64,000 nt of DNA from Escherichia phage WPEC1. The stretch's first letter is position 1; each line of letters begins with the position of its first letter. The stretch is taken from the sequence record PV659873.1, one strand, 5' to 3'. The notes beneath the pieces were generated by a model. That model ran no database searches. It was given only the letters and a program-made list of their open reading frames with translations, and was not told the origin of the DNA. Made by a program: the position numbers and the translations under genes. Below, piece after piece: positions 12,542 through 16,608 of the stretch.

Positions 12542-12597
12542 TTGACATTAACGAATAATTTACTAATATGTTGCATAAGGCGGGAATAGTTCCCGCT
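12542..12597 (+). promoter_or_regulatory. sigma70-like promoter plus conserved 5'-UTR hairpin
   Basis: TTGACA, TAATAT, then GGCGGGAATAGTTCCCGC; RBS and ATG 12615. Confidence 0.6.
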
Positions 12598-12614
12598 ATT
12601 TGTAAGGTGATAGA

Positions 12615-12872
12615 ATGTTTTACATCAAGTTAAAAGGTCACGTGATCGCGTTCAAAGATAATGCTTTTTACAGATTAGCAAAATATGCTTTAATCCATCC
12701 TCATTATGTTTATATAAGGGGGCGTGATGAAATAAATATCTTTGATCAAACAACATGCGAGAACATCGAGATCCGCAAGGTTGGCGTACGTGACTATCGT
12801 ACATCTTTCTACCCTTGTAAGGATTCAGCAAGTCTTTTTAAAGTATGTCAATTGTTGAAAAAAGGTGGTTAA
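12615..12872 (+). CDS. hypothetical protein (85 aa)
   Basis: ORF track; promoter-hairpin upstream. Confidence 0.5.
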   Translation: MFYIKLKGHVIAFKDNAFYRLAKYALIHPHYVYIRGRDEINIFDQTTCENIEIRKVGVRDYRTSFYPCKDSASLFKVCQLLKKGG

Positions 12873-12873
12873 T

Positions 12874-13431
12874 ATGGGGCGTGAATATGTGATCCAGTCT
12901 TGGGTAAAACATGAAGCAGATGATCCGCGCATCATTCCCGATCATCTTATCGATGAATCCACGGGCTATAGCGGTGAGCAAATAGGTAACAGGTTAGCAC
13001 GTAGTAACGGCAACGTAAAAGCGCGTTGTGTGCGCCCTGGCTGGCTGGCAAATGGTAACGCTGATTTATCCAGTGCGGAAGATGCGAGCGACGGCGCGAA
13101 AGATAATCCTTTGTACAAAGTTGATCCGGCTTTTCGTGTCCTGGATGAATACCCCAGCAAGATAGCGGCGCTTGATGAAGCCCTAGAAAGTAAGCGCATC
13201 ACCTGGACCGCTTACAACATGGCAAAAAATGTACTTGATGGTAAATTGATTCAAGCTGAAAGAAAATTAGCCAAAATTGCAGCCATAGCCCAGGAGGAAG
13301 ACGAGGAGACAACGGAAGAGGAAGAGTACGAAGAGATCCCGCCGTTGTTGTGTGTTGATGCTTTTCCTGATTATCAGCCGACAGAGGAAGAAAAAAGGAT
13401 CGCGCTAGAAAACTTTGAAAATAGTCTTTGA
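12874..13431 (+). CDS. hypothetical protein with acidic C-terminus (185 aa)
   Basis: ORF track 12865..13431; ATG 12874 after RBS AAAGGTGG. Confidence 0.55.
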   Translation: MGREYVIQSWVKHEADDPRIIPDHLIDESTGYSGEQIGNRLARSNGNVKARCVRPGWLANGNADLSSAEDASDGAKDNPLYKVDPAFRVLDEYPSKIAALDEALESKRITWTAYNMAKNVLDGKLIQAERKLAKIAAIAQEEDEETTEEEEYEEIPPLLCVDAFPDYQPTEEEKRIALENFENSL

Positions 13432-13485
13432 CATATCGCCGCCACTGGCATAATATTTACCACGTAGGGCGGCAATGGTGCCGCT
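13428..13485 (+). promoter_or_regulatory. promoter plus conserved hairpin
   Basis: TTGACA 13428-13433, CATAATAT, GGGCGGCAATGGTGCCGC. Confidence 0.6.
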
Positions 13486-13513
13486 CATAGTGAAATTATA
13501 CAAGAGGCTTACA

Positions 13514-13618
13514 ATGATTAATAAAGAAAATAGCTTGACGGTTGGAACGATTAACGCTATCATTCTAGCCGTTCCGTTTTGGATTGTAGTGTCGGTTATT
13601 ATTTCAATCATCCTTTAA
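13514..13618 (+). CDS. small membrane peptide (34 aa)
   Basis: Manually read ORF directly after promoter-hairpin; hydrophobic. Confidence 0.35.
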   Translation: MINKENSLTVGTINAIILAVPFWIVVSVIISIIL

Positions 13619-13628
13619 GGTACACACT

Positions 13629-13910
13629 ATGAGCAAGGTAATTAGTCATAAAGAGTTAAGCCCTACCCTTTCAATGAGTGAGTGCACCGATGGCTTTTGG
13701 CTGTATGATGATACGCGCGGCATGAATTTAGCTATGCGTGAAAAAACAGAAGAGGCGGCGTATATTGAAGCCCTGGAATACTACCAGGAACGACTAAAGG
13801 AAGTAGAAAACAATTATAACAACCTAAAAGCGAGAGTAGATCACTTTATCAGCCAGGTGGCAGATGACGACGATGATCACTACTGCGAACGGTGCGGATC
13901 ATACAGCTAA
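13629..13910 (+). CDS. hypothetical protein (93 aa)
   Basis: ORF track. Confidence 0.55.
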   Translation: MSKVISHKELSPTLSMSECTDGFWLYDDTRGMNLAMREKTEEAAYIEALEYYQERLKEVENNYNNLKARVDHFISQVADDDDDHYCERCGSYS

Positions 13911-13928
13911 AAATTATCTAAAAATATT

Positions 13929-13989
13929 ATTGACAACGTTTTAAAAACTGATAAGATGTATCACATAGGGCGGTGGAATACTTCCCCGC
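13929..13989 (+). promoter_or_regulatory. promoter plus conserved hairpin
   Basis: TTGACA 13929-13934, GGGCGGTGGAATACTTCCCCGCC hairpin. Confidence 0.6.
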
Positions 13990-14011
13990 CAAAACAAAAA
14001 AGGGTAACACA

Positions 14012-14374
14012 ATGAGCAAGCAAATTACTACTATCATGTTTAATCTGGTATCTTTCCGCGACGATATGAAAAATTTACCACGTGAAACGGTTGATATTCA
14101 TATTTCAGCTTATCGCGCCCTTATTGACATGTTACCGCTAAAACGTGATCAACATGCCGCTAATATGATGCTTAATGCTATGCTTAAAAAGATGATTCAA
14201 ACGGATCTTACTCTGGCGTATGAGTATCAAGGGCGCTTATATGCAACTTACAACAAAGCGGTACCTGGTCTGGGAAGTACCGAAGAGTTGCACGGCTTAA
14301 ACCTGGATCAAGACACTTGGGATAATATGCGCCGCGTTATGGTATGGGCCGAAAGCGGTAAAATTTATGAATAA
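14012..14374 (+). CDS. hypothetical protein (120 aa)
   Basis: ORF track start 13973 lies inside the UTR hairpin; ATG 14012 after RBS AAAAGGG preferred. Confidence 0.55.
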   Translation: MSKQITTIMFNLVSFRDDMKNLPRETVDIHISAYRALIDMLPLKRDQHAANMMLNAMLKKMIQTDLTLAYEYQGRLYATYNKAVPGLGSTEELHGLNLDQDTWDNMRRVMVWAESGKIYE

Positions 14375-14380
14375 AAACAT

Positions 14381-14436
14381 TTGACACTGTTTAAAATTCT
14401 GGTATAGTTTATCACGTAGGGCGGCAATGGTGCCGC
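14381..14436 (+). promoter_or_regulatory. promoter plus conserved hairpin
   Basis: TTGACA 14381-14386, GGGCGGCAATGGTGCCGCC. Confidence 0.6.
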
Positions 14437-14459
14437 CAATAATGAAAAAGGTTATCATC

Positions 14460-14639
14460 ATGACTATCATTGCAAAAACTGAGATCTTAGGTTTAGATTC
14501 CATTCTTCTGACATATGAGGAAACGTTAGAAATGTATGTGGTTTCCTATGGTGATTATATGCGGGAATATGAATATATTGATCTTGCTTTTGAATGTTAC
14601 ATTCGCCAGGTCAATAAAGCCTATAATGATTATCGTTAA
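14460..14639 (+). CDS. hypothetical protein (59 aa)
   Basis: ORF track start 14427 lies inside hairpin; ATG 14460 after RBS AAAAAGG preferred (14442 also possible). Confidence 0.5.
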   Translation: MTIIAKTEILGLDSILLTYEETLEMYVVSYGDYMREYEYIDLAFECYIRQVNKAYNDYR

Positions 14640-15366: not shown

Positions 15367-15402
15367 CTTTTCGTTATAGCGCCTTATAATGGGCGCTATA
15401 GA
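15364..15402 (+). promoter_or_regulatory. promoter with overlapping palindrome
   Basis: TTGACT 15364-15369, TATAAT 15386-15391 embedded in TATAGCGCC..GGGCGCTATA inverted repeat. Confidence 0.5.
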
Positions 15403-15433
15403 GAAGAGAAACCACTACTAACAAGGAAACATC

Positions 15434-15655
15434 ATGATCACTTTTGCTATTGTCGCCGTTGTTGCTGGTCAGGTTTACGTAAATGATACATTCACCACAG
15501 AAGACAAGGCAGCAGGAGACATCACCGCCGCTTATAATGAGTGCAAGGCAGTAGAAAGGATGTTAGCGCCTTGTATGTTAATGAGTGAACGCCAGGACGG
15601 GATAACAGTATTTAGCAACATTGAAACAGGGTACCAAATGGTAGTAACAAAATAA
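15434..15655 (+). CDS. hypothetical protein (73 aa)
   Basis: ORF track. Confidence 0.5.
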   Translation: MITFAIVAVVAGQVYVNDTFTTEDKAAGDITAAYNECKAVERMLAPCMLMSERQDGITVFSNIETGYQMVVTK

Positions 15656-15657
15656 AA

Positions 15658-15714
15658 CTTGACATAGGTTTAATTTTCAGTAAACTGTTACACGTAGGGC
15701 GGGAACTGTTCCTG
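15658..15714 (+). promoter_or_regulatory. promoter plus conserved hairpin
   Basis: TTGACA 15658-15663, GGGCGGGAACTGTTCCTGC. Confidence 0.55.
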
Positions 15715-15734
15715 CTCAAAAAGAGAGAAAGACC

Positions 15735-16088
15735 ATGAAAGCACAAAATGCAATTAAAGAGTACATCCTTGCCGCTATCGATTTTAATGATTATGGTATT
15801 ACAACAGAAAAAGAGAAGATCGCGGAATTGATGCGCCGTTTTAATTCTGAATATTGGTACCCTGATAATCAATCACGTTTCAATTATAGCATTGTGAAAG
15901 CACTTGCATCATGGTTACAAGGTTTACCATCAGATATTAATATCGCTTTCGAATATTGGGAAGTAGATCGCTTGTTAACATCTTGGGGATACATTAAAGA
16001 GAATAGCAGCGATGATAAAATCCAACGAGAAAGGGAAAATTATTGGCTTTATATTGCAGGTGTGATCCTTGCTTGCTCTTATGAATAA
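15735..16088 (+). CDS. hypothetical protein (117 aa)
   Basis: ORF track. Confidence 0.55.
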   Translation: MKAQNAIKEYILAAIDFNDYGITTEKEKIAELMRRFNSEYWYPDNQSRFNYSIVKALASWLQGLPSDINIAFEYWEVDRLLTSWGYIKENSSDDKIQRERENYWLYIAGVILACSYE

Positions 16089-16094
16089 TAAACC

Positions 16095-16147
16095 TTGACA
16101 ATTTTACAAAATAGTTTAAATTAACAATATGGCGGCAATGGTGCCGC
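16095..16147 (+). promoter_or_regulatory. promoter plus conserved hairpin
   Basis: TTGACA 16095-16100, GGCGGCAATGGTGCCGC. Confidence 0.6.
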
Positions 16148-16167
16148 TAATATAAAGAGGAAACAAA

Positions 16168-16314
16168 ATGAATACATCTAATCGCGCAGAAAAAATTCAA
16201 TCTTCCAAGATCCGCAAGGCCTGGAATGAAGAAGTGATCCGCAAAGGCGATAAGCGCAATAAAACAAAGCGCGGGAAGAGTGATAAATATAATTGGATGG
16301 ATTTAGAGGACTAA
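16168..16314 (+). CDS. hypothetical small basic protein (48 aa)
   Basis: Manually read; RBS AAGAGGAAA; terminator follows. Confidence 0.45.
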   Translation: MNTSNRAEKIQSSKIRKAWNEEVIRKGDKRNKTKRGKSDKYNWMDLED

Positions 16315-16320
16315 CATAAC

Positions 16321-16348
16321 AAGGGCGCATCAAGCGCCCTTTCTTTTT
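16321..16348 (+). terminator. rho-independent terminator
   Basis: GGGCGCatcaaGCGCCC stem-loop followed by TTTCTTTTT. Confidence 0.6.
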
Positions 16349-16369
16349 ACATGCAGAGGATAAACACAG

Positions 16370-16555
16370 ATGACTTTAAACGAGCTTAAAACAGCCTACA
16401 ACGCAACATTAAAAATAGCCGTGCGTTACCGTGATGAGTACGGTTTTATTGCGCAGGGCGTGATCCTGGGCTTTTCTGACGATGGTTTGATCTATGTTGA
16501 TGCACATCACAACAAGGTTAAACCTGAAAACGTCATCAGTATAAAATATCTTTAA
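16370..16555 (+). CDS. hypothetical protein (61 aa)
   Basis: ORF track. Confidence 0.5.
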   Translation: MTLNELKTAYNATLKIAVRYRDEYGFIAQGVILGFSDDGLIYVDAHHNKVKPENVISIKYL

Positions 16556-16561
16556 AAATGG

Positions 16562-16608
16562 TTGACATTATAACCAGATTTACTAAGATGTATTGCATAG
16601 GGCGGGAA
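16562..16608 (+). promoter_or_regulatory. promoter plus conserved hairpin
   Basis: TTGACA 16562-16567, GGGCGGGAATAGTTCCCG. Confidence 0.6.

Follow-up and report, generated by a model that had tools for sequence, protein, structure and literature searches.

Several T4-type phages, namely RB49/phi1, T4/PST and KVP40/nt-1, carry repeated early-gene elements known as promoter-early stem-loops, or PeSLs (Arbiol et al. 2010, PMC2839356; Comeau et al. 2014, PMC4122927). Their stem-loops are not fixed in position: most lie between or over the -35 and -10 hexamers, and five subclasses are recognized. PeSL cassettes also form mini-circles during infection (PMC2839356, PMC4122927). In the PeSL picture, where one phage has an ORFan between two cassettes, another has a single chimeric cassette (PMC2839356). 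A comparable family of promoter-hairpin cassettes is described here from Escherichia phage WPEC1 (record PV659873.1), of which a stretch of 64,000 nt, called the window below, was analyzed. Like PeSLs, the WPEC1 cassettes are intergenic repeats that combine an AT-rich tract, a σ70 early promoter, a GC stem-loop, a Shine-Dalgarno (SD) sequence and an ATG, and they occur in arrays of small open reading frames (ORFs) of unknown function, or ORFans, in plastic regions.

What is established for these cassettes is their architecture, its statistical significance, its conservation over two phage subfamilies, the retention of structure at a fixed place, and recombination between cassettes. As for their role, the explanation favored here, with about even confidence, is that each is a PeSL-like composite that would both express and shuffle early genes, and that its transcribed hairpin would serve mainly as an RNA boundary element.

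The original prediction for this DNA had pointed to at least 19 loci in which a σ70-type promoter is followed, about 10 nt after the -10, by a hairpin and then by a ribosome-binding site. Both the number and the order hold up. Use of an exact pattern, a looser scan and a hidden Markov model (HMM) built from the copies, together with inspection, gave 20 full units in the window, 19 of them unique, in which the order is AT-rich tract, TTGACA, spacer of 16–17 nt, TAnnnT, tATCAC(R)TAG, GC hairpin, A/C-rich linker with the SD, and ATG. The units are given below, where the -35 hexamer stands at the first coordinate of the nine plus-strand entries and at the last coordinate of the eleven minus-strand entries, and where dG is in kcal/mol; the phages phAPEC8, phi92 and slur16 are relatives discussed further on.

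12542–12617, plus strand: cassette; -10 at 12564–12569; hairpin 12579–12597 (GGCGGGAATAGTTCCCGCT, dG -11.4); ATG at 12615.
13428–13516, plus strand: cassette; -10 at 13451–13456; hairpin 13467–13486 (GGGCGGCAATGGTGCCGCTC, dG -12.9); ATG at 13514.
13930–14014, plus strand: cassette; hairpin 13969–13990 (GGCGGTGGAATACTTCCCCGCC, dG -12.6); ATG at 14012; left junction of a three-gene segment missing in phAPEC8.
14381–14462, plus strand: cassette; hairpin 14420–14437 (GGCGGCAATGGTGCCGCC, dG -12.6); ATG at 14460.
14659–14737, plus strand: weak member; -10 CATAAT; 5-bp hairpin 14698–14710 (GGGAACACTTCCC, dG -4.0); ATG at 14735.
15107–15195, plus strand: cassette; hairpin 15146–15169 (AGGCGGCGGAATGGTCCACCGCCT, dG -14.8, one C·A mismatch); ATG at 15193; right junction of the segment missing in phAPEC8.
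15659–15737, plus strand: cassette; hairpin 15697–15717 (GGGCGGGAACTGTTCCTGCTC, two G·U pairs, dG -11.2); ATG at 15735.
16095–16170, plus strand: cassette; hairpin 16130–16149 (TGGCGGCAATGGTGCCGCTA, dG -11.9); ATG at 16168.
16562–16643, plus strand: cassette; hairpin 16601–16620 (GGCGGGAATAGTTCCCGACC, dG -9.3); ATG at 16641.
28612–28697, minus strand: cassette; hairpin 28657–28637 (GGCGGGAAGTGGTTTCCCGCT, dG -12.1); ATG at 28614.
28176–28258, minus strand: cassette; hairpin 28220–28197 (GGGCGGGGCAATAAGGCAACGCCC, dG -13.4), identical in the rV5-like phage slur16; ATG at 28178.
27380–27459, minus strand: cassette; hairpin 27421–27402; ATG at 27382; left partner of a recombination pair around a 63-aa ORF (27382–27191).
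27110–27187, minus strand: cassette with a weaker -35, TTGATC; hairpin 27148–27131; ATG at 27112; right partner of the recombination pair.
24072–24152, minus strand: cassette with -35 TTGACG; hairpin 24113–24094; ATG at 24074.
23785–23870, minus strand: cassette; hairpin 23831–23809 (GGGCGGGAAGTGGTTTCCCGCTC, dG -14.1); ATG at 23787.
4692–4769, minus strand: cassette with -35 TTGATC; hairpin 4732–4712; ATG at 4694.
4309–4391, minus strand: weak member with -35 TTGCAA; 5-bp hairpin 4347–4335 (GGGAATAGTTCCC); ATG at 4311.
3940–4018, minus strand: cassette; hairpin 3980–3964 (GGGGCGACAAGCGCCCC, dG -11.3); ATG at 3942.
3462–3542, minus strand: cassette; hairpin 3504–3485; ATG at 3464.
3099–3178, minus strand: duplicate of the cassette at 28697, identical through the hairpin and then diverging without an SD; phAPEC8 has this promoter once.

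The geometry of the units is narrow. The -35 is TTGACA in 16 of the 20 and the -10 is TAnnnT in 19, with a spacer of 16 nt in 14 units and of 17 nt in the other 6; the 20 nt before the -35 are 79% AT (61% in the window), and the 10 nt after the -10 approximate (T/G)TATCAC(R)TAG. The hairpin starts 10–12 nt past the -10 in 18/20 units and folds at -9 to -15 kcal/mol in 18/20, the two 5-bp stems being at -4. From the hairpin end to the ATG runs an A/C- and purine-rich linker of 16–27 nt, with the SD outside the stem. Motif enrichment and RNA folding, two of the checks that had been proposed along with the prediction, both came out in its favor: the pattern TTGACA-N15-19-TANNNT-N4-14-GGCGG had 14 matches against 0.00 in 100 dinucleotide shuffles, and folding of the 34-nt segment that follows the -10 gave a mean of -13.3 kcal/mol over 54 cassettes (four genomes), well beyond dinucleotide shuffles (median z -3.5), while 21 other σ70-like (TTGAC-type) sites in the window averaged -4.5. 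From the predicted start, leaders folded into one 5′-proximal hairpin with 3–4 free nt, and the SD and AUG were unpaired in five of six. The cassette genes tested are of unknown function and appear as hypothetical proteins in the annotation of relatives.

It is the structure of the hairpin, much more than its sequence, that recurs at this place. More than 30 distinct hairpin sequences were found at the one offset in phAPEC8, phi92, slur16, SSBI34 and the window, with loops such as TAG, CTG, ATGG, GTGGT and ACAAG and with stems of varying length, so that the two consensus hairpins first proposed are indeed present but are merely two among many variants. Both subfamilies retain the basal stem GGCGG/CCGCY and the 5′ flank CAC(R)TAG. 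Pairwise identity among copies is 0.885 for the -35, 0.69 for the -10 and 0.30 for the spacer, the last of these values indicating that the copies are old and not recent duplicates. Between orthologues, three changes preserved pairing: at the basal pair, A-U replaced G·U in two cases (window 12542 versus phAPEC8 44318, and 16095 versus 47510), and G·U replaced G-C in one (15659 versus 47075). A search of Rfam with window positions 1–30000 gave no match at E ≤ 1.

A query with an 81-nt cassette found 131 phage records, all of the phAPEC8, phi92 and rV5 groups. HMM and covariance model (CM) searches gave about 19 copies for the parts of phAPEC8 that were covered and about 17 for phi92, along with several in the rV5-like slur16 and at least five in Salmonella phage SSBI34, a member of the Vequintavirinae; stems among these copies include GGGCGACACAACGTCGCCC and GGCGGGAAAAATTCCCGCC. 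A scan of IMG/VR for TATCACRTAGGGCGG returned 48 loci, and cassettes, as judged by CM, were confined to contigs of 97–153 kb from the same two subfamilies; T5-sized contigs (108–120 kb) and others in that database were single chance matches, and the family extends no further there. The slur16 and IMG/VR copies are known from CM alignments alone. The carriers of the motif are thus Stephanstirmvirinae and Vequintavirinae, and none was of the T4 type. Among the texts searched no paper contained the motif string, the phAPEC8, PVP-SE1 and phi92 genome papers lying outside that search.

The best-supported functional property of the cassettes, judging from genome comparisons, is recombination. The phAPEC8 cassette at L001:3167 equals the window cassette at -27459 upstream of the hairpin and the one at -27187 downstream of it, and the only stretch common to the two window partners is the 22-nt CGTAGGGCGGCAATGGTGCCGC, the site of the crossover. 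The form with two cassettes and the 63-aa ORF between them is contiguous in 20 independent genome records out of 76 that match, and 56 are without it. This single chimera in phAPEC8, set against two cassettes plus an ORF in 20 records, is the arrangement described for PeSLs, as are indel and replacement junctions that lie within cassettes, stem-loop included, and give rise to chimeras. Window 13997–15120, a segment of three genes, has no counterpart in the phAPEC8 array; it is bounded on the left at the unit 13930 hairpin and on the right within the unit 15107 promoter. In at least 7 of 19 cassettes, the best phAPEC8 or phi92 partners differ for the promoter, hairpin, and leader-plus-gene parts; for instance, the phi92 cassette whose promoter is orthologous to that of unit 14381 bears a different hairpin. 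Intergenic junctions would be expected for any viable indel, and the chimeras together with a crossover inside the hairpin are the stronger evidence. Moreover, the type-A loop reads ATGG in every copy from phAPEC8, WPEC4, slur16 and SSBI34, and the three phi92 copies all have ATAG. On this comparison, the hairpin loop variants are homogenized per genome, which is concerted evolution.

How could such a cassette work? Host σ70 RNA polymerase would almost certainly, given the near-consensus hexamers, read its promoter early in infection. Initiation at σ70 promoters falls 7–8 nt past the -10, with a purine after a pyrimidine preferred. The conserved R of CAC(R)TAG is a purine in 16/20 units, and this base, about 8 nt past the -10, is the likely +1; the hairpin would then begin at +3 to +5 and leave 2–4 nt unpaired. 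In its own transcript it would lie near the 5′ end, and in read-through from cassettes farther upstream it would lie between cistrons. For RppH and RNase E, two unpaired 5′ nt are the minimum and three or more are preferred; RppH also favors a purine at position 2 (PMC8833179). Set against these needs, the predicted 5′ end, pppR-U-A-(stem), would be a poor substrate, though not a fully protected one. Most likely the hairpin acts in both contexts at the RNA level, as a boundary element: it would slow the 5′-end-dependent decay that RppH and RNase E carry out, shield the upstream segment from 3′ exonucleases, and stop the G-rich 5′ end from disturbing an otherwise unstructured ribosome-binding region. 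At the DNA level, the cassette of about 75 bp, and above all its hairpin core of 20–22 nt, would supply homology for recombination and gene conversion, by which ORFs could be inserted, deleted or swapped and the hairpin variants homogenized within a genome.

Some elements outside the 20 units also bear on this explanation and on its rivals.

28418–28437, minus strand: intercistronic hairpin without a promoter (AGGCGGGATTAATCCCGCCT), 6 nt past a stop codon and 18 nt before an ATG.
2890–2905, minus strand: intercistronic hairpin without a promoter (GGGGCGGTAACGCCCC), 21 nt before an ATG.
About 2608–2625, minus strand: intercistronic GC hairpin without a promoter, in the same style.
1697–1778, minus strand: promoter with the conserved TTATCACGTAGGGC, its hairpin degenerate or lost; phAPEC8 keeps GGGCGAGCAATACAGCAAGCCC at the site.
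15363–15436, plus strand: variant promoter, TTGACT-16-TATAAT, with a hairpin that overlaps the -10 (TTATAGCGCC TTATAATG GGCGCTATAG).
16321–16341, plus strand: canonical intrinsic terminator (hairpin and T-run), the only one in the plus-strand array on the sense strand.

The three promoter-less hairpins stand 6–8 nt past a stop codon and 18–30 nt before the next ATG, and TCAACA(A) precedes two of them; the phi92 orthologue of the 2905 site has a full promoter-hairpin cassette. At 15363–15401 (plus strand), the -10 lies in the loop of an 8–11-bp hairpin, which is the typical layout of T4-type PeSLs, unlike that of the 20 family members. At 21425–21530 (plus strand), ahead of the gene at 21536, a promoter-like TTGACT-17-TAATCT precedes a hairpin of another kind (GTGGCGGATTTCGAAGAAACCGCTAT) and a terminator-like GCCCCTTCGGGGGC that ends in a T-run; this region falls outside the cassette family and may be a leader with an attenuator.

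Several observations weigh against an RNA boundary role, or at least temper it. Since the predicted 2–4 unpaired 5′ nt suffice for RppH and RNase E, protection of the 5′ end could at best be incomplete. Similar hairpins exist without any promoter, so nearness to the transcription start site is not essential, and their position about 20 nt before an ATG ties the hairpin to the leader and ribosome-binding site as much as to the start site. Two members have mere 5-bp stems, and one promoter has lost its hairpin. An excess of G·U over A·C is expected under RNA-level constraint and would separate selection on RNA from selection on DNA. On the sense strand no clear excess was seen: G·U outnumbered A·C by 12 to 6 with no significant dG difference (p=0.31), and unbiased scoring of 51 unique hairpins, a set contaminated by a few antisense CM hits, gave 19 versus 18; the C·A mismatch of one recurrent variant would pair better on the antisense strand. 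In a CM alignment of 71 hits, 81.7% of cells were paired (74.5% when shuffled) and covariation was 0.178 (0.096 when shuffled, and at most 0.097 with slid partners), values reached in both cases by 0/500 shuffles, but these figures are only indicative, as a register mismatch between type-A and type-B hairpins in the alignment makes per-pair counts unreliable, and per-copy folding was given more weight. That the type-A loop stays the same from one subfamily to the other suggests that something beyond mere thermodynamic stability is at work. Finally, literature searches gave no transcriptome or map of transcription start sites for Vequintavirinae or Stephanstirmvirinae.

One rival explanation is that the hairpin acts mainly as an attenuator or terminator of transcription arriving from upstream cassettes, in an array that has a promoter every 450 bp or so, where it would keep transcripts from accumulating on one another. 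A RB49 PeSL stem-loop placed between a promoter and lacZ cut expression as much as rrnB T1 did (PMC2839356), and both the promoter-less intergenic hairpins and the hairpin that overlaps the -10 at 15363, as in typical PeSLs, would fit such a function. However, an intrinsic terminator was rejected as the identity of the hairpin: on the sense strand, none of the cassette hairpins of the plus-strand array is followed by a T-run, their tails being A/C-rich, and the sole canonical terminator there is the separate one at 16321–16341. A terminator downstream of its own promoter would also stop its own transcript before the gene. This role is considered unlikely.

A second rival places everything at the DNA level: the quasi-palindrome would be kept perfect by template switching or gene conversion and would be a hotspot or a structure-specific site for cassette recombination, and the RNA hairpin would be incidental. 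The crossover inside the hairpin, the swapping of hairpin types between orthologous promoters and genes, the concerted loops and the lack of any visible G·U strand asymmetry all accord with it, and the PeSL authors proposed the stem-loop as a target for recombination proteins (PMC2839356). What speaks against it is that the place of the hairpin relative to the -10 is fixed in 18/20 units and its distance from the SD is constant even in promoter-less copies, which argues for a link with expression; homologous recombination, moreover, requires identity and not a palindrome. A purely DNA-level role is considered unlikely as well.

It is also conceivable, at a similarly low probability, that the hairpin is a structure-recognized element for a dedicated factor, either a global RNA-binding regulator at the 5′ end of each early mRNA or an attC-like recombination or gene-conversion system that mobilizes ORFan cassettes. 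Such a factor would explain why the basal stem and the AATGG loop are invariant in two subfamilies and why all type-A copies of phi92 changed jointly from ATGG to ATAG.

Another rival, rated improbable, is that the hairpin is a specific site for a phage or host protein, be it a regulator that shuts off or stabilizes early mRNA or a loader of an antiterminator. The stem and flank conserved in two subfamilies, the type-A loop AATGGT that is identical in phAPEC8-like phages, slur16 and SSBI34, and the switch of the three phi92 type-A copies, which could reflect co-evolution with a binder, are all in its favor; gene conversion, of course, accounts equally for that switch. Set against the proposal, over 30 variants that differ in loops, stem lengths and bulges coexist within single genomes, and no candidate RNA-binding protein was found among the tested proteins, which are of unknown function. 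When the cassette genes and the surroundings of the divergent promoter region were searched for an Srd-like or other protein that modulates RNase E, domains of unknown function were all that emerged. As for antitermination, λ nut and rrn sites have a boxA beside a boxB hairpin with a defined loop, one per operon. The cassettes have no boxA in or near them, their loops and stems vary, and there is one hairpin per gene; a site of this type is unlikely, and one part of the original prediction, which had offered stability, antitermination or a phage RNA-binding protein as the reason for a shared 5′ control point, thus finds no support. The architecture behind that idea stands, a shared control point is plausible, and a role of the 5′ stem-loop in stability stays viable.

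Much less probable is an operator in double-stranded DNA at about +4 to +25, through which a dimeric repressor would switch the early promoters off. The inverted repeat does lie just past the start site, as lacO does, and its GGCGG/CCGCC half-sites are conserved. Their distance, though, varies from 8 to 12 nt (GGCGG to CCGCY), with bulges and mismatches, and promoter-less copies exist, and so a rigid dimeric operator was rejected; variable spacing is what one would expect of a hairpin whose base is conserved and whose apical part varies. Least probable of all is the phage-specific promoter annotated at 10 or more phAPEC8 sites by PHIRE, which reports repeated 20-mers only: the motif does lie upstream of genes, but it always follows a near-consensus σ70 promoter at a fixed distance, it is merely about 20 nt before the ATG, and what is kept is the palindrome and not the sequence (>30 variants).

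That annotation shows that the repeat was already noticed in 2012 and filed as a promoter. In the phAPEC8 RefSeq record (NC_020079), the -35/-10 part is a “putative host dependent promoter determined with MEME”, and the next 20-mer, for example GTAGGGCGGCAATGGTGCCG, is a “putative promoter determined with PHIRE”, a label that is probably a misreading of the hairpin. The element is the same and its positions are orthologous, but the record says nothing of a hairpin, of the variants it takes, of its place within the transcript or of recombination. The promoter table of the rV5 paper ends 7 nt past the -10.

Start codons are affected as well. The suspicion that some of them had been called within hairpins was well founded: of the longest-ORF starts, 13475 and 14427 are the ATG of an AATGG loop, 13973 is a GTG in a stem, and 16593 is a TTG that lies past the -10 and ahead of the hairpin. 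The annotation of Escherichia phage WPEC4 adopts the starts 13475, 14427 and 16593, and instead of 13973 it uses the downstream ATG at 14012. In its record (PV682947.1), CDS082, CDS085, CDS088 and CDS094 correspond to window 13475, 14427, 15107–15196 and 16593; a 90-nt “CDS” (coding sequence) there runs across cassette 15107, and the TTG start at 16593 precedes the predicted transcription start site. Public annotations of these phages hence contain hairpins called promoters, several starts inside or upstream of the hairpin, and spurious ORFs over cassettes.

The state of the source DNA calls for some care. WPEC4 is 100% identical to window 12000–17000, other Phapecoctavirus (phAPEC8-like) genomes being about 94% identical, and the window as a whole is collinear with no phage record; the best single-place cover of its first 25 kb by any of them is at most 46%. 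Relative to WPEC4, blocks 5791–12222, 16906–23753 and 23754–27021 are reversed and block 12223–16754 is forward, and arrays of fragments of about 152–155 bp stand between blocks. These arrays lie at 4850–5790, 16753–16908, 28705–31272, 41571–42107, 45173–45326, 55148–56460, 57596–59132, 61826–61980 and 62291–63297, and the fragments recur in both orientations at 97–100% identity. Well-assembled genomes such as phAPEC8 and phi92 have one or two copies of each fragment, and WPEC6 has 21. The arrays and the block rearrangement are almost certainly short-read misassembly of the WPEC4/WPEC6 type, as this comparison indicates, and not biology. By the same evidence the window is the product of a scrambled assembly, which leaves the reality of the motif unaffected.

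The scrambling explains why cassettes occur on both strands in four patches and why the cassette at -3178 is identical to that at -28697 up to a breakpoint; the -3178 copy is probably itself an assembly artefact. The grouping of loci by strand in the original prediction had the coordinates right, but the division into plus and minus arms is, set beside phAPEC8, an artefact: there, all detected cassettes but one form a single co-directional array, which starts at about 143.6 kb, passes the end of the record and stops at about 4.5 kb. The remaining one is a full cassette on the minus strand at about 121,969 of the record (L004 21907–21969), with the hairpin GCGGGGAGTGGTTCCCCGC, outside the ORFan array and upstream of gp051, the head of a long block of nucleotide-metabolism genes. 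Cassettes are thus not limited to tiny ORFs.

One breakpoint falls on a hairpin.

12223–12299, plus strand: promoter-less copy of a hairpin and leader, a 77-bp inverted duplicate of 23830–23754 at the breakpoint 12222/12223.

Here (window 12171–12299 and 23754–23830) the break is exactly at the first base of the hairpin, and the hairpin, leader and gene start are fused to an unrelated fragment; the palindromic hairpins themselves may seed mis-joins by the assembler. A seeming second promoter family, TTGCCATAAAAACAAACATCGTATACAATGGGTGCTAGATAGAATTCAGGATTATGAAGGAG followed by ATGACAAATAATATTCCGTTG, had seven sites in the looser scan (+4875 and +41585; -58874, -55594, -45312, -42091 and -42014). 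It belongs to one of the fragments of about 152 bp, which phAPEC8 has at 7274–7426, in only one or two places, so that its high copy number in the window is an artefact. Twelve tRNA genes lie in three patches (40052–41484, 56544–57015 and 62543–62610); among them are a neighboring pair of tRNA-Gln(TTG), two tRNA-Met and, on the opposite strand, a short tRNA-Gln of 68 nt. Given the scrambled assembly, some of them may be duplicated fragments. Lastly, Phapecoctavirus genomes of about 96% identity are labeled Campylobacter phage B15, Pseudomonas phage PsgM04F, Acinetobacter phage vB_AbaM_ABPW7 and Serratia phage KKP_3264, host labels that look doubtful and may stem from contamination or misassignment.

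To a specialist the finding is unsurprising but useful, and it corrects public annotation. If the favored explanation is true, promoter-hairpin cassettes that express and shuffle accessory genes are not confined to T4-like phages; another large group of coliphages, with many candidates for phage therapy among them, would have evolved such cassettes on its own, and composite cassettes would be a more general design for “hyperplastic” early regions. Being compact (about 75 bp), strong and apparently insulated from context, they could also serve as parts for synthetic biology, and the fixed transcribed hairpin offers a clean system for studying how far a near-5′ hairpin with 2–4 free nt protects mRNA in E. 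coli.

Among known elements, the 5′ untranslated regions of ompA and papA and the T7 gene 10 leader have 5′-terminal stem-loops that stabilize the mRNA. They share with the cassettes a stable near-5′ hairpin followed by an unstructured leader with an SD, a type of hairpin expected to impede RppH and the 5′ sensor of RNase E, but protection requires fewer than about two unpaired 5′ nt, whereas 2–4 are predicted here, and hairpins of the cassette type are also found between genes. Integron attC sites and phage “morons” are similar in being gene-sized modules with their own expression signals. The attC sites are recognized as imperfect hairpins of variable sequence; in contrast, no integrase-type recombinase is implicated here, and homologous recombination over 20–75 bp of identity suffices. 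The closest parallel is still with PeSLs, although the lineage is unrelated (Stephanstirmvirinae and Vequintavirinae are not T4-like), which makes the two kinds of cassette analogues and not homologues. The PeSL stem-loop is variable in position, whereas the hairpin here is held 10–12 nt past the -10 and is thus transcribed, and with no T-run after it a role as terminator is doubtful. On these comparisons the cassettes shuffle genomes as PeSLs do but are not homologous to them, and they probably use the hairpin differently.

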